A DNA stretch of 64,000 nucleotides from Candidatus Moraniibacteriota bacterium (GTDB lineage Bacteria; Patescibacteriota; Minisyncoccia; Moranbacterales; UBA1568). Position 1 is the first letter of the stretch; every line of letters starts with the position of its first letter. The stretch lies in NCBI GenBank assembly GCA_030648835.1, contig JAUSGT010000001.1, forward strand, positions 551 to 64,550, read 5' to 3'. A program made the translations under genes and the position numbers. The notes beneath the pieces are model-generated. The model ran no database searches, had not been told where the DNA came from, and saw only the letters and a program-made list of their open reading frames with translations. Shown in pieces: positions 1,695 through 63,025 of this stretch.

Positions 1695-2813
1695 ATGTTG
1701 CGGACACTTCTCAAATTTGATTGGATGCTCATCGCGGTGACAGTCCTTCTTTTGGGAGTGAGTCTCCTCACACTTTCCAGTCTCTCCGCGGTAGGCAACG
1801 TGGATTATTTTCTCCGGCAGTCGGTTTTTTCCCTGCTTGGTCTGGGGGTGATGTTGTTTGTCGGTTTTTTGGATTATCGACATATAGAAAAACAGAGCAC
1901 AGCGCTGTATTTTATCACGGCGATTGCTCTTTTCGGTGTGCTTCTTTTTGGGACCACGGTGCGCGGTACGGCAGGCTGGCTTTCTTTTGGTGTGTTTCAA
2001 GTCCAACCGGTGGAAGTCGCCAAGGTGACGCTCATCATCTTTCTTGCCAGCTTCATTTCCAAGAAAAAATCGGAACTTGGCGAATGGACACGGGTTATCG
2101 CGTCGCTCGTCCTTTCTGCGGTACTCATTTTTTTGGTTTTACGGCAACCCGATCTTGGTTCCAGTCTTGTGTTGGCCATTATCTGGGGTGGGATGATATT
2201 CGCATCGGGACTGAGAGCAAAGCATCTTGTCACCTTGTTTCTTCTCGGGACACTGCTTGTTTCCAGCGGTTGGTTTGCCTTGGCGGATTATCAGAAGGAG
2301 CGTATCAATACCTTCATTCATCCGGAATCCGATCCGCGCGGCTCGGGATACAATGTACTTCAGGCGATCGTGGCTGTCGGTTCGGGGGGGATTTCCGGTA
2401 AAGGGATCGGACATGGTTCACAATCTCAACTCAACTTTCTTCCAGAAAAACATACCGATTTCATTTTTGCCGTGATTGCCGAGGAACTCGGGTTGACGGG
2501 AGCCTTCTTTGTCATTGGCCTCTATCTCGTGCTTTTGTATCGGATCAAACGTATTGGTGATACGGCCAGTGACAATTTCGGCTATCTGGTCGCGGTCGGG
2601 GTGTTGGTGATGTTTCTGGCCCATATTGTCATCAATATTGGGATGAACATTGGGTTGCTTCCGGTGACGGGATTGCCGGCGCCGCTCCTCTCCTATGGGG
2701 GAAGCTCGCTTTTCTCAATGCTCTTTTCTCTGGGACTCCTTTTGAGTATTTACCGAAAGAAAAAAGGCAATGAAGACCTGCGTATTTCACTGGAAAAGAC
2801 ATCTATTGACTAA
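1695..2813 (+). CDS. FtsW/RodA/SpoVE family peptidoglycan glycosyltransferase (SEDS protein)
   Basis: 372 aa polytopic membrane protein with the conserved SEDS core 'SGGISGKGIGHGSQSQLNFLPEKHTDFIFAVIAEELGLTGA'. Confidence 0.9.
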   Translation: MLRTLLKFDWMLIAVTVLLLGVSLLTLSSLSAVGNVDYFLRQSVFSLLGLGVMLFVGFLDYRHIEKQSTALYFITAIALFGVLLFGTTVRGTAGWLSFGVFQVQPVEVAKVTLIIFLASFISKKKSELGEWTRVIASLVLSAVLIFLVLRQPDLGSSLVLAIIWGGMIFASGLRAKHLVTLFLLGTLLVSSGWFALADYQKERINTFIHPESDPRGSGYNVLQAIVAVGSGGISGKGIGHGSQSQLNFLPEKHTDFIFAVIAEELGLTGAFFVIGLYLVLLYRIKRIGDTASDNFGYLVAVGVLVMFLAHIVINIGMNIGLLPVTGLPAPLLSYGGSSLFSMLFSLGLLLSIYRKKKGNEDLRISLEKTSID

Positions 2814-2847
2814 ATATGATGTATGTTGCATAGTACAATACGTTCGT

Positions 2848-2995
2848 TGATCCCGCACCTACTTTACCGTTTTCTTCAGTGCGACGCGCGGGCGAATAGC
2901 TCGGTCCTATTCGGACCGGCGTTGCCATTTCAAAGAAGCAAATAGTCTGTAAACATAAGACGTTATTAGTAGCGGTAAAATAGGTGCGGGATTGA
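2848..2995. repeat. Intergenic element bounded by a near-perfect 20 bp inverted repeat, upstream of secG
   Basis: Left arm 'atcccgcacctactttaccg' and right arm 'cggtaaaataggtgcgggat', with an inner hairpin 'cggtcctattcggaccg'. Either a structured RNA or a MITE-like element. Confidence 0.4.
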
Positions 2996-3060
2996 CGGGT
3001 GACACCTTTTTTGTTACACTGAAAAGGCTTTGAAAAAGCTTTTTTTGTTTATCATACCTT

Positions 3061-3285
3061 ATGCGAGCTCTCCTTATAGCGCAGGCAATTGTCGCAATAT
3101 TTCTTGCGGTGTCTATTCTGCTTCAGAATCGCGGGGCTGGGTTGGGGAGCGCTTTTGGGGGTGATTTTGGCGGATATTACACCAAACGTGGTTTGGAAAA
3201 GTTCCTTTTGTATGCATCAGTGGTTCTGGCTATTGTCTTTTTTGTTTTGGCTATTGCCAACGTACGGTTGGCGCTCATAGTGTAG
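3061..3285 (+). CDS. secG: Preprotein translocase subunit SecG
   Basis: 74 aa with two TM helices and the typical SecG signature 'LLQNRGAGLGSAFGGDFGGYYTKRGLEKFL'. Confidence 0.8.
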   Translation: MRALLIAQAIVAIFLAVSILLQNRGAGLGSAFGGDFGGYYTKRGLEKFLLYASVVLAIVFFVLAIANVRLALIV

Positions 3286-57609: not shown

Positions 57610-58746
57610 ATGATAGGGATACAACTAAGTAATATTTGGACGTTTCACGTCCAAATGGTAGGTGGTATGTCTTTTATGGAAACGGCCGATACGCTGAACA
57701 AGGCACTAAATAGCTCTCTTGGAGTGTTTCTTATCTCGGATCCGAGTGGGACGGCTCTGTATGCCAACTTGGCTACCGAGAAACGCACAGGGTTTTCCGT
57801 GGGGGAGATCATCGGCAAGGCGCCGGGGAAACTCTGGGGTGGTCAGATGCCTCGGGCCTTCTACAACAAATTGTGGGCGACGATCGGGGAGAAGCAGATA
57901 CCATTCGTGGCGACGGTGACGAACGTGCGCAAGGACAAGGCACGCTATCCGGAACTTATGGCTATCGCGCCAATCATCGGAAAGGGGAAAAAGACACCGG
58001 ACTATTTTATCGCTTTTGAAATGAGCCATTTGGAAGGCAAAGCGCCTCGGGAACGCTTCGAGCGTGAGTTTCAAAAGGTTTTTTCCAAAAAGGGGGCTCT
58101 GAACGATGAAGATCGATTGCGTTATATATTACAGACGCTTGGTTCCAAGCATGCGGCGCCGAGAATGGAAGGGAAATCACTGCCGGAAATTTTTCGGGAA
58201 ACGTTGGTAGGGCCATTCGAAGAGCGTTTTCGGGCCCGGAAAGTCGATCATGAGCTCATTTTGGCCGCCCAGACGGATCCGAAGCAGTTTCAAGCGTTGT
58301 ACAACAAATATCGGCATACGATTTTTGTTTATTTCATGCGGCACGCCGAGGGCAATATCGAGATTGCCGAGGATTTGGCCCAGGACACGTTCTATCGGGC
58401 GCTTCGGTACTTGGAGAACTTCCGCCTCACCAACGCGTCGTACGGCACCTATTTGCTGCGTGTGGCGCACAACGTGCTCATCAATTATTTCCGTAAGAAG
58501 CAGTTTCTCTCCATCATTGATGAAACCATCCTGGACAAGGTTACGCCGGAAGTTTGTCAGCTTTCTGAAGACACACTCTGGCAATCGCCGAGTCTCCTCA
58601 CAACCGAGCGCAAGGTGCTCTCAATGAAGTATCAAGAGGGCTTTTCGATTCATGAAATAGCCACTATGTTGGGGAAGAGCGAGAATGCCGTAAAGCTCCA
58701 TTTGAGCCGGGCTCGGAAGAAACTCCGCAATACTCTTATAGGGTAA
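57610..58746 (+). CDS. PAS-domain protein fused to a sigma-70-like region 2/region 4 module
   Basis: 378 aa. The N-terminal about 130 aa look PAS-like ('FLISDPSGTALYANLATEKRTGFSVGEIIGKAP'). The C-terminus has region 2 'YNKYRHTIFVYFMRHAEG...AEDLAQDTFYRA' and region 4 'FSIHEIATMLGKSENAVKLHLSRARKKLR'. Confidence 0.55.
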   Translation: MIGIQLSNIWTFHVQMVGGMSFMETADTLNKALNSSLGVFLISDPSGTALYANLATEKRTGFSVGEIIGKAPGKLWGGQMPRAFYNKLWATIGEKQIPFVATVTNVRKDKARYPELMAIAPIIGKGKKTPDYFIAFEMSHLEGKAPRERFEREFQKVFSKKGALNDEDRLRYILQTLGSKHAAPRMEGKSLPEIFRETLVGPFEERFRARKVDHELILAAQTDPKQFQALYNKYRHTIFVYFMRHAEGNIEIAEDLAQDTFYRALRYLENFRLTNASYGTYLLRVAHNVLINYFRKKQFLSIIDETILDKVTPEVCQLSEDTLWQSPSLLTTERKVLSMKYQEGFSIHEIATMLGKSENAVKLHLSRARKKLRNTLIG

Positions 58747-58925
58747 GTGAGAGAAAGCCGTTTTCTCCGATAAAAAGTGAAAATCTACCAGATATTGTGG
58801 TTTTGGGTGTCGCGATGACACCTTTTCTGTTTTCAGGTGTTTAACTCTATGCAAGAGAAAAACGCTTCGGGGGAAGTCGTTTTTTCTTCTCTCAATAACC
58901 GATAATTAAAACAAAAAACGCGCTT

Positions 58926-61043
58926 ATGCCGATATACAAGGTGCAGAAACGGAGCGGGGGAATCGTCGACTTCAATCTCTCAAAGATCGAGCAGGCTATC
59001 GAGAAGGCGGCCGAAGCAGTGGAAGAGAAGGACACTATCACGGCGCAGGTGTTGGCTGAGGACGTCTATCACCAGCTGGAAGAGCAGTTCGAGGATGGGA
59101 TACCGACCGTGGAAGAAGTGCAGGACATTGTCGAGAGCGTGCTGATTCAGTATGGCTATGCCGAAATCGCCAAGGCGTATATTTTGTATCGTGAGAAGCG
59201 TCGCGAGATGCGCGAGCAAAAGAATGTCGTTGTTCAGGTGGAGAAGGCGGTCAAAGAATATCTGGAAAAGCTCGACTGGAGGGTCAATGCCAATTCCAAC
59301 CAGGGCTACTCTCTGGGCGGGATGATTTTGAATACGGCCGGCAGCGTCATTGCGAACTACTGGTTGTCGCATATCTATCCGAAGAATGTCGGTGACGCGC
59401 ATCGGAATGCCGATATTCACATTCATGATCTGGATATGTTTTCCGGATATTGCGCCGGATGGAGTCTCCGGGCCCTTCTCGAAGAAGGTTTCAACGGGGT
59501 TCCAAACAAGATAGAATCCGCACCGCCGAAACATCTGGTCTCCGCCGTTTCGCAAATGGTAAATTTCCTTGGCACATTGCAAAATGAATGGGCGGGTGCG
59601 CAAGCGTTTTCCAGCTTCGATACGTACATGGCGCCGTTTGTGAAGAAGTACGAGATGGAACTCCGGGTCGATATCAAGAAATACGGTATGAAGTTCACGT
59701 CGAAAAAAGCCAAGGAGAAGTATGTGAAAGAAAAGACCTACGCGTATGTCTATCAGAACATCCAATCATTCGTATTCAACTTGAACATCCCTTCGCGTTG
59801 GGGGACGCAGACGCCGTTCACCAATATCACGCTCGACTGGGATTGCCCGGAAGATATGAAAGAGAAACGTCTCTTGCTCGGGGGCAAGCCGTTCGAATAT
59901 ACGTTCGGTGAGCTCCAACCGGAGATGGATATCGTCAATCGGGCGTTTATCGAAGTGATGTCGAAGGGTGATGCCAGAGGGAGAACTTTTACTTTTCCGA
60001 TCCCGACGTACAACGTGACCAAAGACTTTGATTGGGAGGACCCAAAAAATCTGGCGCTTTTCGAGATGACCGCCAAGTATGGGACGCCGTATTTCCAGAA
60101 CTTTATGAATTCCGATCTCAATCCGAGCGATGTGCGTTCGATGTGTTGCCGATTGCAGTTGGATTTGCGCGAATTGCGCAAGCGCGGTGGAGGACTCTTC
60201 GGTTCGGCGGAAATGACCGGATCCATCGGCGTGGTGACGATAAACGCGGCGCGTATCGGCTATTTGGCGAAGGGCGACAAAGAAAAATTCTTCAAGCGTA
60301 TTGAGCATCTTATGGAATTAGCCAAGACCTCGCTCGAGATCAAACGCAAAGAAGTCCAAAAATGGATCGATCGTGGACTTTTTCCCTATACCAAGCGCTA
60401 TCTCGGCTATTTGAAGAACCATTTTTCGACGATCGGTATCAATGGTATCAATGAGGCCATTCGCAATTTCACGAACGACGAGGAAAATATCACCACAGAG
60501 AAAGGACATAAATTTGCCGAGGAATTGCTCGATTTTATGCGTGAACGCATCAAAGATTTTCAGGAAGAGACGGGCAGTTTCTACAATCTGGAAGCCACAC
60601 CGGCCGAAGGGACGACGTATCGTTTTGCCAAAGAAGACAGAAACCGTTTCCCGGAAATTCTCCAGGCCGGTACCGTGGAGGCCCCGTACTATACAAACTC
60701 TTCGCAGGTCCCGGTCGGTTACACGGACGATGTGTTCGAAGTGTTGGAATTGCAAGACAGCCTGCAAACCAAATATACCGGTGGGACGGTTCTTCACTGT
60801 TATATGAACGAGAGAGTCAGTTCCGGACAAGCCTGCCGTAATTTGGTGCGGAGCATTCTTTCCAATTTCCGTTTGCCCTATATCACCATCACGCCAACTT
60901 TCTCGATTTGTCCGAAGCATGGATATCTTGAAGGAGAGTACGATTATTGTCCAAAGTGTGATCAGGAACTTGGTATTGAAGGCGGTACCCGGTTTGATAA
61001 GGAAGCGCGTAAGAAGTATCAGAGTGCCAGTGCCGAGAGATGA
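58926..61043 (+). CDS. nrdD: Anaerobic ribonucleoside-triphosphate reductase NrdD (ATP-cone, catalytic barrel and zinc ribbon), lacking the glycyl-radical loop
   Basis: 705 aa. N-terminal ATP-cone 'VQKRSGGIVDFNLSKIEQAI', class III RNR core, and C-terminal Cys4 ribbon 'CPKHG...CPKC'. There is no RVxGY motif before the stop. Confidence 0.8.
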   Translation: MPIYKVQKRSGGIVDFNLSKIEQAIEKAAEAVEEKDTITAQVLAEDVYHQLEEQFEDGIPTVEEVQDIVESVLIQYGYAEIAKAYILYREKRREMREQKNVVVQVEKAVKEYLEKLDWRVNANSNQGYSLGGMILNTAGSVIANYWLSHIYPKNVGDAHRNADIHIHDLDMFSGYCAGWSLRALLEEGFNGVPNKIESAPPKHLVSAVSQMVNFLGTLQNEWAGAQAFSSFDTYMAPFVKKYEMELRVDIKKYGMKFTSKKAKEKYVKEKTYAYVYQNIQSFVFNLNIPSRWGTQTPFTNITLDWDCPEDMKEKRLLLGGKPFEYTFGELQPEMDIVNRAFIEVMSKGDARGRTFTFPIPTYNVTKDFDWEDPKNLALFEMTAKYGTPYFQNFMNSDLNPSDVRSMCCRLQLDLRELRKRGGGLFGSAEMTGSIGVVTINAARIGYLAKGDKEKFFKRIEHLMELAKTSLEIKRKEVQKWIDRGLFPYTKRYLGYLKNHFSTIGINGINEAIRNFTNDEENITTEKGHKFAEELLDFMRERIKDFQEETGSFYNLEATPAEGTTYRFAKEDRNRFPEILQAGTVEAPYYTNSSQVPVGYTDDVFEVLELQDSLQTKYTGGTVLHCYMNERVSSGQACRNLVRSILSNFRLPYITITPTFSICPKHGYLEGEYDYCPKCDQELGIEGGTRFDKEARKKYQSASAER

Positions 61044-61077
61044 AAACAAAAATAATTAATCATATAAAAGTAACATT

Positions 61078-61290
61078 ATGACCAAAGGTAAGAAGGGCCG
61101 GACAGCAGAGATAGAATCACAACGCACACACTGTGAAGTATGGACGCGCGTGATGGGGTATCATCGTCCGGTTTCTCATTTTAATATCGGTAAAAAGTCT
61201 GAGCACTATTCGCGCAAGCACTTTCAGGAGACGGTGGCTGCCAATCACGAATTTTGCGAGAAGTATCAGCTTCAGTCGCAAGCTTGTTAG
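61078..61290 (+). CDS. Stand-alone NrdD glycyl-radical domain (C-terminal fragment of class III RNR)
   Basis: 70 aa: 'HCEVWTRVMGYHRPVSHFNIGKKSEHYSRKHF' is the NrdD glycyl-radical signature RVxGY...N.GK..E. It is in a different frame from the upstream nrdD. No single indel can join the two ORFs. Confidence 0.55.
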   Translation: MTKGKKGRTAEIESQRTHCEVWTRVMGYHRPVSHFNIGKKSEHYSRKHFQETVAANHEFCEKYQLQSQAC

Positions 61291-61460
61291 CCATGGTACA
61301 GAGAAAATCTTTCGCCGCAAGAATCTTCCCGGGAGAGTTGAAGTTTTTTTGAGCATGGTGCTGCCGTTTCGGCAGATCAAAAAAAGTTCATAAGTGGAGT
61401 TCGTCGCTGGATGAACGGAACGGCTCCCGAGGAGGTTGCTTGCGGTCGGAAGATGAATAG

Positions 61461-62204
61461 ATGGAAGAGGGAGAAGAGTTTCTTGTTTTGAAAGATATGA
61501 TTTTGAGCGGCATCCAAAAATTCACTCTGATTGATTTTCCCGGCAAAATAGCCTGTGTGCTCTTCACCGGTGGTTGCAATTACCGGTGTGGTTTCTGCCA
61601 CAATCCGGAGTTTGTTCTGCCGGAAGAATTGGCCAAGCTCTCCAAAAGTTTCATTCCGGAAGTGGCGGCGCTCAATTTTCTGAAGAGACGGAGGGGGATG
61701 CTTGAGGGAGTGGTGATCTCCGGTGGTGAGCCGACCATTATGCCCGACCTGGAAAGCTTCATCGTGAAAGTGCGGGATCTGGGATTTGCCGTGAAGCTTG
61801 ATTCCAACGGTAATCGTCCGGAAGTGCTGCGCTCACTGATTGAAAAAAAGTTGGTGGACTATATCGCGATGGATTTCAAAACGAGTCTGCCGGAATATCA
61901 ATCGCTTGTTGGCAAATGGGCGGATGAGAAGAAGTTGCAAGAGAGCATCAACCTTCTGAAACAAGGGGATGTCGATTATGAATTCCGTACGACGCTCGTC
62001 CGTGAAGTGCATACGCCGGAGATTCTCGAGGCTATGAGCAAAACGTTGGTGGGATCCAAACGTCTTTATTTGCAAACCTTTCGGCCTGGCATCGTGCTTG
62101 ATCCTACTTTCAAGGATTATCATGCTTTTTCTTCGGAAGAGATGCAAGACATCGCAAAACTTTTTTCTGCCAGCGTGGAAGAAGTATCTCTTCGTGAGGA
62201 ATGA
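61461..62204 (+). CDS. nrdG: Anaerobic ribonucleotide reductase activating protein (radical SAM)
   Basis: 'FTGGCNYRCGFCHNPE' CxxxCxxC radical-SAM motif. 247 aa. Located adjacent to nrdD. Confidence 0.85.
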   Translation: MEEGEEFLVLKDMILSGIQKFTLIDFPGKIACVLFTGGCNYRCGFCHNPEFVLPEELAKLSKSFIPEVAALNFLKRRRGMLEGVVISGGEPTIMPDLESFIVKVRDLGFAVKLDSNGNRPEVLRSLIEKKLVDYIAMDFKTSLPEYQSLVGKWADEKKLQESINLLKQGDVDYEFRTTLVREVHTPEILEAMSKTLVGSKRLYLQTFRPGIVLDPTFKDYHAFSSEEMQDIAKLFSASVEEVSLREE

Positions 62205-62221: not shown

Positions 62222-63025
62222 ATGGGGCGGAAACTTTTACTCATTCTTTTTGTGATAGTTGTCGTCTCGGGTGTGGCGATCCGCCGTTTTCCGACTGTTT
62301 TTTTGCACGGCGGAGAGGAAAAGCCTGTAAAATCCGGAGATATTGCCTCTCAAGAACCGAACACTCAACCGACAATTGTTTCTGAAAAAGAAGTATCAGC
62401 AGATCTGAAGGAGTCCGCCCAAGGCGGATCCGCCTTGGGCGGAAGCAGTCTGATAGAGAATGTGCCTTTTACGGTGCAGGCACCGTTTGGCGAGTGGGAT
62501 GTTGTGACATTTCAAGACGGTTGTGAGGAAGCAGCGCTGGTTATGGTCGCTCACTGGCTTTCCGGAAAACCATTGACCAGAGAAATAGCCAAGAAAGAAA
62601 TCATGGACCTTGCCGGCTTTGAAGACAAAAAATACGGACAATCGATCGATACTTCGGCGGAAGATACGCAAAAACTTTTGATGGAGTATTATGGTGTGAC
62701 TACTTCGGAACTGCGTACGGACATTTTAATGACCGATATACAAGAGACCTTGGCAATTGGCGCTATCGTAATTGTTCCGGCAGACGGGAGAAAACTTATG
62801 AACCCAAATTATAAGCAGCCTGGACCGACCACACATATGCTGGTGGTGATTGGGTATGACGCGGGGAAAAAAGAATTCATCGCCAATGACTCCGGAACGA
62901 GGAAAGGGCAGGGGTACCGGTATAAAGAAGATATCCTTTATGAAGCGATCCGCAATTATCCGACAGGTGACCATTTACCGATTCGAGGAATACATAAAGA
63001 TATGATTGTGGTCAGCAAGCCGTGA
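62222..63025 (+). CDS. Secreted papain-like (peptidase C39-like) domain protein
   Basis: 267 aa with an anchor. 'FQDGCEEAALVMV' (candidate catalytic Cys) and a distal His/Asp, as in the C39_2 family. Confidence 0.45.
   Translation: MGRKLLLILFVIVVVSGVAIRRFPTVFLHGGEEKPVKSGDIASQEPNTQPTIVSEKEVSADLKESAQGGSALGGSSLIENVPFTVQAPFGEWDVVTFQDGCEEAALVMVAHWLSGKPLTREIAKKEIMDLAGFEDKKYGQSIDTSAEDTQKLLMEYYGVTTSELRTDILMTDIQETLAIGAIVIVPADGRKLMNPNYKQPGPTTHMLVVIGYDAGKKEFIANDSGTRKGQGYRYKEDILYEAIRNYPTGDHLPIRGIHKDMIVVSKP

Follow-up and report, generated by a model that had tools for sequence, protein, structure and literature searches.

To our knowledge, every glycyl-radical enzyme studied so far carries its radical glycine on the catalytic chain, the small protein GrcA being an exception that serves repair. 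For the class III ribonucleotide reductases (RNRs), in all solved or biochemically studied cases of the catalytic subunit NrdD that we found, including those of phage T4, Escherichia coli, Thermotoga maritima, Prevotella copri and Streptococcus thermophilus (PDB entries 1h78, 4coi, 4u3e, 8p23 and 9d3x), the same chain carries the glycyl-radical domain (GRD) as its C-terminal part. In the window, a 64-kb stretch of contig JAUSGT010000001.1 of Candidatus Moraniibacteriota bacterium (GCA_030648835.1) whose numbering is used for all coordinates below, the GRD is instead a separate gene product: the large nrdD piece, open reading frame 1 (ORF1), lacks it, and a minigene downstream (ORF2) encodes it. 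The locus belongs to the same family (PF13597/NF006126) as the one-piece enzymes and shares with them the ATP-cone, the barrel, the finger-loop cysteines, the zinc ribbon, the RVxGY loop and the activase NrdG, and a joined model of its two pieces superposes on the solved structures. However, since the GRD is on a separate gene product, the radical would form on one polypeptide and be used on another. Full-text literature searches, which left out most subscription journals, turned up no account of a cellular NrdD whose GRD has a gene of its own, and the two-piece NrdD is apparently a normal, conserved and so far undescribed state in hundreds of bacterial species.

The locus resembles several described systems in part. 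GrcA (YfiD) is also a small stand-alone protein with a glycyl-radical loop, which works by insertion into a large partner's barrel (PMC12288474, PMC8683613). However, GrcA is a spare for a GRD-bearing host after oxygen damage, whereas ORF2 is the only GRD of the enzyme that it adjoins, and the lack of a PF01228 match indicates that ORF2 derives from NrdD and not from pyruvate formate-lyase (PFL). GrcA has about 127 aa, and ORF2 is about half that size. The first-pass annotation, made from the window sequence alone, had been right in offering a stand-alone radical domain as one of two readings, but its comparison with GrcA does not extend to the role of a spare part, as the adjoining NrdD has no GRD of its own. 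In the free-living Pseudomonas aeruginosa, NrdJa and NrdJb represent an RNR catalytic subunit encoded by two consecutive genes, with the C-terminal module on the second chain (PMC4520616, PMC9669993); this is, however, a class II RNR with another break point, and both splits occur in P. aeruginosa. Further examples of RNR large-subunit genes in pieces that still function are NrdA-a/NrdA-b of Aeromonas phage Aeh1 and nrdD genes of phages in which introns or homing endonucleases intervene (PMC3045599, PMC3653736). The phage splits are recent and lineage-specific, with the mobile element still there, whereas in the window the pieces are separated by a 34-nt spacer without a mobile element and the split is old and crosses phyla.

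Profile searches distributed one NrdD over the two ORFs. ORF1 matched the Pfam NRDD profile (PF13597) with 594 bits (cut-off 26.2) over positions 2-538 of 562, and ORF2 matched the same profile with 31.1 bits (E 1.3e-7) over its last 32 positions, 531-562. On NCBIfam NF006126, ORF1 scored 1090 bits (cut-off 548) and ended at profile position 653 of 684, and the match of ORF2 started at position 646 and reached 683; in addition, ORF1 scored 470 bits against TIGR02487 (cut-off 326). Since these coordinates abut, the two pieces add up to a complete NrdD in which no catalytic part is absent or present twice. The linker alone was longer, with 27 aa of ORF1 tail and 18 aa of ORF2 N-terminus versus 11-24 aa in fused relatives. 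The PDB relatives of ORF1 were class III RNRs without exception. Among its relatives, C407, C408 and R409 of the finger loop were invariant or nearly so (alignments A4 and A5), the motif being of the MCCR type in the classes (MGCR, MCCR) described for NrdD (PMC9669993). The zinc-ribbon residues C662, C675 and C678 were invariant and H665 nearly invariant (alignment A3), and the region aligned to the ribbon of T. maritima NrdD; thus, of the ORF1 domains named in the first-pass annotation, the ATP-cone, the core and the zinc ribbon were recovered, but the ribbon, which it had described as Cys4, is Cys3His by sequence. In ORF2, the R-V-M-G-Y motif aligned with RIVGY of T. maritima NrdD. Judged by family cut-offs, the MCCR finger loop, the zinc-ribbon ligands, the glycine loop (on ORF2) and the adjoining nrdG, the locus is an NrdD family member by every sequence criterion except the one-chain architecture, the core and the GRD being separated by a stop at 61041 and a separate ATG at 61078 in another frame. 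A Pfam scan of ORF2 returned PF13597 only and no PF01228 (Gly_radical) match at E<=0.01, no intein match was found in Pfam for either ORF, and no dedicated model for the small GRD subunit was found in Pfam or NCBIfam.

Alignment of 40 ORF2 homologues showed that the 34-residue GRD core, R16-F49, has almost all positions invariant or at least 90% conserved. The N-terminal part differs in length among the homologues, and conservation of the C-terminal extension is partial. A protein identical to ORF2 (P0001) is annotated on a 204-kb contig of a Candidatus Moranbacteria metagenome-assembled genome (MAG). The C-terminal tail of ORF1 was conserved in relatives from the candidate phyla radiation (CPR), with the consensus D-x-E-L-G-I-x-x-G-x-R-x-D-x-E-x-R-K-x-Y, and absent in non-CPR relatives. 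A likeness between this tail and the region after the radical loop had been suggested, and we considered the tail (G-x-R-F/Y-D-x-E-x-R-K-x-Y) as a possible relic of a duplicated GRD; comparison of the tail alignment (A6) with the ORF2 alignment (A1) by hhalign gave a probability of 0.2%, and this candidate was rejected.

We found that the split is widespread. In a survey with one genome per GTDB species, ORF2 relatives were present in at least 595 species genomes, and the GRD was a short ORF in 77 of the best 80 loci and fused in three (L043, L047 and L055), which goes against the possibility, raised with the first-pass annotation, that the relatives all carry an uninterrupted nrdD. The arrangement in an independent Logan assembly was the same as in the window. 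With ORF2 as query, 2490 clusters of homologues were returned at E<=1e-3; all of the best 120 had 55-83 aa and, where a source was named, were labelled Moranbacteria, Moraniibacteriota, Magasanikbacteria, Patescibacteria group or simply 'bacterium'. Pseudomonas-type queries yielded 1820 and 3377 further clusters, with lengths of 48-94 aa among the matches listed. Stand-alone GRD proteins thus form a large family, of 48-83 aa. Carriers of the split include CPR bacteria, Proteobacteria, Chlamydiota, Elusimicrobiota and Omnitrophota, with Betaproteobacteria, gut Alphaproteobacteria, Parachlamydiales and Thermoflexus among the further examples. Cultured carriers include Pseudomonas, Halomonas/Billgrantia, Alloalcanivorax and Ectothiorhodospira, and among cultured bacteria the complete genomes of Pseudomonas, Stutzerimonas and Ectothiorhodospira show the split. 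Hundreds of independent assemblies have this architecture, which excludes chance.

A phmmer search with ORF1 against 1.84 billion cluster representatives gave 8222 matches. When the C-termini of the best 150 (50%-identity representatives) were classed, about 60 proteins stopped within 45 aa past the zinc ribbon and had no GRD, about 52-63 were fused, and the remainder were truncated or had another type of C-terminus. In a rough neighbour-joining tree (412 columns), the window protein fell in a large, almost wholly split clade containing CPR bacteria, Proteobacteria and others. The tree as a whole showed about 14 state changes; outside the main clade, some proteins classed as 'split' may owe this to truncation at a contig end. 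By these sequence comparisons, the split is the standard architecture of a large NrdD clade and is not peculiar to the window genome.

Sequence features mark the two pieces as independent genes. Re-reading of the coordinates confirmed that ORF2 starts 34 nt downstream of ORF1 in the +1 frame and that no single indel could fuse the two, as ORF1 ends with TGA at 61041-61043 and a TAA at 61057-61059 lies in the ORF2 frame upstream of its ATG; between this TAA and the GRD, no start codon other than the ORF2 ATG is present. Frame, gap and Shine-Dalgarno (SD) counts were based on 70 loci in which the upstream gene was verified as nrdD (38 non-CPR and 32 CPR-type). ORF2 was offset from nrdD by 0 in 19, +1 in 24 and +2 in 27 loci, and the median gap was 33 nt, the extremes being an overlap (-38) and +960 nt; neither the length nor the sequence of the spacer was conserved among relatives. 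An SD-like motif, typically AAGGAG, preceded ORF2 in 31 of the 38 non-CPR loci versus none of the 32 CPR-type loci, and the 34-nt spacer of the window locus has no SD site. Only six of 42 long ORFs in the window had an SD-like motif, their leaders being A/T-rich; the A-rich leader of ORF2 is therefore normal for this organism, whose genome appears to start translation largely without SD sites. The ORF2 core is under strong purifying selection: when its 34 codons in the window were compared with those of CPR relatives, the proportions of nonsynonymous (pN) and synonymous (pS) differences were 0.02-0.05 and 0.5-1.0 (saturated), respectively. The order nrdD, GRD gene, nrdG is found in most related loci where the three are all present, often with overlapping starts and stops, and nrdG follows in the window as had been noted. 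In one Magasanikbacteria MAG (L032), a PIN toxin gene and an AbrB-type antitoxin gene are inserted between nrdD and the GRD gene on the opposite strand (2588-3272, minus strand).

The same split was found in P. aeruginosa (GCA_002136435.1; locus L083, 1930-4842). Its nrdD encodes 675 aa without a GRD and ends in ...CPKCDEELLQRSTPKSCCGGCGG*, with a Cys cluster, KSCCGGCGG, as the tail. The GRD gene lies 43 nt past nrdD, is preceded by AAGGAG, has 48 codons encoding MNPNQLPEGQRQRCEVWTRVMGYHRPVAAFNAGQQSEHRERRHFRETR, and its stop overlaps the ATG of nrdG. In RefSeq, the product is WP_086340034.1, named 'oxidoreductase' or 'anaerobic ribonucleoside-triphosphate reductase', and annotated minigenes of this kind also occur in the P. 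fluorescens group, P. chlororaphis, P. putida and Stutzerimonas. The class III locus of P. aeruginosa has been described as a single locus consisting of nrdDG only (PMC4860495, PMC5645315). Deletion of nrdD strongly impairs anaerobic growth, and the defect is rescued by the cloned 'nrdDG genes' (PMC4860495), a fragment that would include the minigene. If this is indeed the sole class III locus, the phenotype implies that the split enzyme works in vivo in P. aeruginosa.

The predicted structure was compatible with a canonical NrdD. AlphaFold2 was run on an artificial concatenation of ORF1 and ORF2 with an alignment of 62 cluster representatives (A5), giving a canonical NrdD fold with a mean predicted local distance difference test score (pLDDT) of 89.3 and a predicted template modelling score (pTM) of 0.85; a single-sequence run of the same concatenation gave a pLDDT of 37. 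The model matched all class III RNRs in the PDB with template modelling (TM) scores of 0.65-0.81. Residues 16-45 of ORF2 were modelled as strand-turn-strand plus helix with a pLDDT of 90-93, Gly27 being placed in the turn between strands 725-729 and 734-736. The junction, including the ORF1 tail, was helical with a pLDDT of 63-77, and confidence fell from 75 to 44 along the C-terminal tail of ORF2. In T. maritima NrdD, about five residues lie between CPVC and YMRIVGY, and the model places the break in a flexible linker between the zinc ribbon and the GRD. We considered whether the invariant Cys19 of ORF2 might complete an inter-chain zinc site, but did not adopt this, as ORF1 already has a conserved, putative Cys3His set.

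We propose, with a probability of roughly 85%, that the locus encodes a heteromeric class III RNR of two polypeptides in which the radical subunit acts in trans. The large piece, with its ATP-cone, ten-stranded barrel bearing the MCCR finger loop and zinc ribbon, would by homology form a dimeric barrel, and the 70-aa protein, presumably made from its own start codon, would carry the glycyl-radical hairpin with Gly27. The small protein may dock non-covalently in the barrel at the site taken by the C-terminal domain of one-piece NrdD, so that the Gly hairpin would be inserted beside the finger-loop cysteines. NrdG with S-adenosylmethionine would then take a hydrogen from Gly27 to generate the radical, which would move in trans to Cys407 or Cys408 of the large piece and start nucleotide reduction. 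The proposal is grounded in the gene architecture, the independent translation signals, the conservation, the purifying selection, the nrdG synteny and the confident joined fold. Dependence of NTP reduction on the glycyl radical is supported indirectly, by analogy with the nrdD deletion in P. aeruginosa, a species with the same split.

Several observations weigh against this proposal. The physical association of the chains, the location of the radical on the small one and its transfer in trans are steps that we infer, and the model of an artificial fusion speaks for compatibility of the fold with the canonical assembly, not for affinity. The MCCR finger loop itself was poorly predicted (pLDDT 54-65); low confidence in this loop has also been reported for double-cysteine NrdDs (PMC9669993). 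The three fused genes are nested within the split clade of the neighbour-joining tree, and the split or fused state is therefore evolutionarily labile. In five loci (L050, L053, L070, L071 and L072) the GRD gene lies apart from nrdD, which would also suit a spare-part role, and the window covers 64 kb of the genome, leaving room for a second, one-piece NrdD elsewhere.

The first-pass annotation had left the choice between a natural two-piece RNR and a disrupted gene. Adjoining ORFs in different frames that cover one family are the usual signature of a frameshift, and an indel, an assembly error or a nonsense mutation might have broken a one-piece nrdD into a pseudogene. However, the TGA at 61041 and the in-frame TAA prevent restoration by one indel, the same split occurs in the Logan assembly, in 77 of the best 80 GTDB loci and in cultured Pseudomonas, Stutzerimonas and Ectothiorhodospira with complete genomes, and the existence of all three frame offsets together with the strong selection on ORF2 does not suit decay. 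The probability of artefact or decay is thus practically negligible, and the natural two-piece enzyme is supported by the conservation across phyla, the complete genomes, the start codon of ORF2 and the purifying selection. A single chain could alternatively be produced from the two ORFs by ribosomal frameshifting, bypassing, an intron or trans-splicing of a split intein. In phage T4, ribosomes bypass 50 nt while translating another gene. Inteins abound in many close NrdD relatives, and RNR genes often host introns, inteins and homing endonucleases (PMC3653736). In the window, however, an Rfam scan of 58500-62000 gave no match at E<=1 and the junction RNA (61010-61110) folded no better than its shuffles (z-score +0.83), indicating that no intron, riboswitch or bypass-like element is present. 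A recoding signal would not tolerate a spacer with such unconserved length, sequence and frame offset, nor is one expected where ORF2 has its own ATG, with a canonical SD site in most non-CPR loci, where a toxin-antitoxin cassette separates the pieces or where the GRD gene is unlinked. Inteins have Cys or Ser at their +1 position and His-Asn followed by Cys, Ser or Thr at the C-junction; these residues are absent, with no His-Asn before C19, and the 27-aa tail and 18-aa head, both variable in length and sequence, are far too short for a split intein. We therefore regard recoding or splicing as very improbable.

It could also be argued that ORF2 is a repair module for a one-piece NrdD encoded elsewhere, ORF1 being inactive or otherwise employed. 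GrcA/YfiD acts in this way for PFL (PMC8683613, PMC12288474), and both the five orphan GRD genes and the limited view of the genome would allow such a role. Nevertheless, ORF1 retains every conserved catalytic feature and stands in an operon-like row with ORF2 and nrdG, as in most three-gene loci, and ORF2 lacks the PF01228 signature. In addition, the nrdD of P. aeruginosa is of the GRD-less 675-aa type and belongs to what the literature treats as the sole class III locus (nrdDG), and its deletion impairs anaerobic growth. A role purely as a spare thus seems unlikely, and the heteromeric two-chain enzyme is preferred.

Why the two-chain enzyme should have arisen may be explained by cheap replacement of an oxygen-cleaved piece, by easier access of the activase to a free GRD or by the freeing of chain ends, all of which are hypotheses. 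They can be combined in a tentative and rather doubtful extension, in which the small protein is an exchangeable radical cartridge and the freed chain ends take on a second job as a Cys-tail shuttle. NrdG would activate the small protein while free or loosely bound, after which it would plug into the GRD-less NrdD, and after oxygen cleavage at Gly27 only a piece of 6-8 kDa would be discarded and replaced. If so, class III RNR would come with cheap, built-in repair both in facultative anaerobes, Pseudomonas for instance, and in CPR bacteria that are exposed to oxygen. Cys pairs were found on 50 of 279 ORF2 C-terminal tails and on 10 of 69 tails of GRD-less NrdDs, the window ORF2 ending in ...FCEKYQLQSQAC and the NrdD of P. 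aeruginosa in ...KSCCGGCGG, and some fused relatives have C-terminal extensions with a redoxin-like CPNC motif. In class I and II RNRs, reducing equivalents reach the active site by way of C-terminal cysteines; by analogy, Cys pairs on flexible tails could do so for the MCCR active site, and the tails hint at thiol-based re-reduction in the MCCR clade.

An obligate two-chain class III RNR, if real, would offer a natural system, widespread and found also in a pathogen that is genetically tractable, for the study of how the activase reaches the buried GRD, whether a free GRD can be activated and how oxygen damage is dealt with. It also corrects the 'nrdDG' picture of P. aeruginosa, in which a third gene of 48 codons lies between nrdD and nrdG; constructs expressing nrdD alone would miss the radical site. 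In annotations, the small subunit goes under 'anaerobic ribonucleoside-triphosphate reductase', 'oxidoreductase' or 'hypothetical protein', and the large piece may be mistaken for a truncated gene. Metabolic reconstruction of small-genome CPR bacteria, in which RNR is essential, hinges on a correct reading of the split. The features of the window locus are listed in Table 1.

Table 1. Features of the nrdD-GRD gene-nrdG region, in window coordinates
Feature	Position	Strand	Evidence
Terminator-like hairpin that follows the gene for the PAS-sigma factor; the nrd operon probably has its 5' boundary here	58805..58823	+	Consensus scan only
ORF1, large nrdD piece; class III RNR catalytic subunit without GRD, 705 aa	58926..61043	+	Pfam, NCBIfam, PDB relatives
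ATP-cone, allosteric activity domain (ORF1 residues 5-94)	58938..59207	+	PF03477, E 3.5e-23
Finger-loop motif M406-C407-C408-R409, double-cysteine 'MCCR' type; predicted thiyl-radical site	60141..60152	+	Translation, alignments
Zinc ribbon C662-P-K-H665 ... C675-P-K-C678; predicted metal site	60909..60959	+	Conservation, T. maritima alignment
ORF1 C-terminal tail, 27 aa, DQELGIEGGTRFDKEARKKYQSASAER	60960..61040	+	Alignment of relatives
Spacer between ORF1 and ORF2, 34 nt, A-rich	61044..61077	+	Sequence reading
ORF2, GRD minigene; stand-alone glycyl-radical subunit, 70 aa, frame +1 relative to ORF1	61078..61290	+	Pfam, NCBIfam, homologues
GRD core (ORF2 residues 16-49), RTHCEVWTRVMGYHRPVSHFNIGKKSEHYSRKHF	61123..61224	+	Alignment of 40 homologues
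Gly27 codon GGG; predicted glycyl-radical residue in R24-V-M-G27-Y28	61156..61158	+	Sequence reading
ORF2 C-terminal extension past the canonical NrdD end, QETVAANHEFCEKYQLQSQAC; two Cys (C60 and C70), last residue Cys	61225..61287	+	Alignment of homologues
nrdG, radical-SAM activase	61461..62204	+	TIGR02495 NrdG2, 195 bits (cut-off 131), E 5.7e-58

A consensus scan detected no terminator-like site between nrdD, the GRD gene and nrdG in the window. The gene directly 5' of nrdD (57610-58746, plus strand) encodes a 378-aa protein with a PAS domain fused to sigma-70 regions 2 and 4, and such a neighbour was also found in locus L001; the protein might sense oxygen or redox state and act as a sigma factor of the nrd operon. 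In the stretch from the terminator-like hairpin to the start of nrdD, inspection by eye showed an inverted repeat (agagaaaaacg ... cgttttttcttct) at about 58855-58900 (plus strand); it had no Rfam match. On the 3' side of nrdG, a gene at 62222-63025 (plus strand) encodes a protein of 267 aa, which has a hydrophobic segment at its N-terminus and matches a Peptidase_C39-like domain (E 6e-9).

The five loci with a GRD minigene apart from nrdD are from gut Alphaproteobacteria-type MAGs and have neither nrdD nor nrdG within 3.5 kb. The minigene is located at about 3460-3700 in L070, L071 and L072, and its neighbours on the two sides in L072 are a ParC/GyrA-like gene and a hypothetical gene; in these genomes the minigene may stand for an unlinked subunit or for a genuine spare. 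In a Peribacteria locus (L030, 824-7127), nrdD, the GRD gene and nrdG are followed by a second nrdD, the gap between the first nrdD and the GRD gene being about 394 nt.

Other arrangements were observed among the NrdD relatives. The window NrdD is intein-free, and many of its nearest representatives (P0284-P0433) have 800-1800 aa, with the query matched in 3-6 stretches and one or several inteins. Another type of C-terminus, 'CPxHGY...CPYPHTEE...' (among P0303, P0313, P0315, P0330, P0339 and others), has neither the CxxC second half nor a GRD. A further group (e.g. P0404 and P0408) is GRD-less with helical, coiled-coil-like tails; a GRD gene for this group was sought on the metagenome contig L082, and none was present before the contig end. 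On this contig (426-5070), nrdD occurs in several pieces with intein matches and is followed by a gene for a 325-aa protein of Cys-rich short repeats (CGxxC-like).

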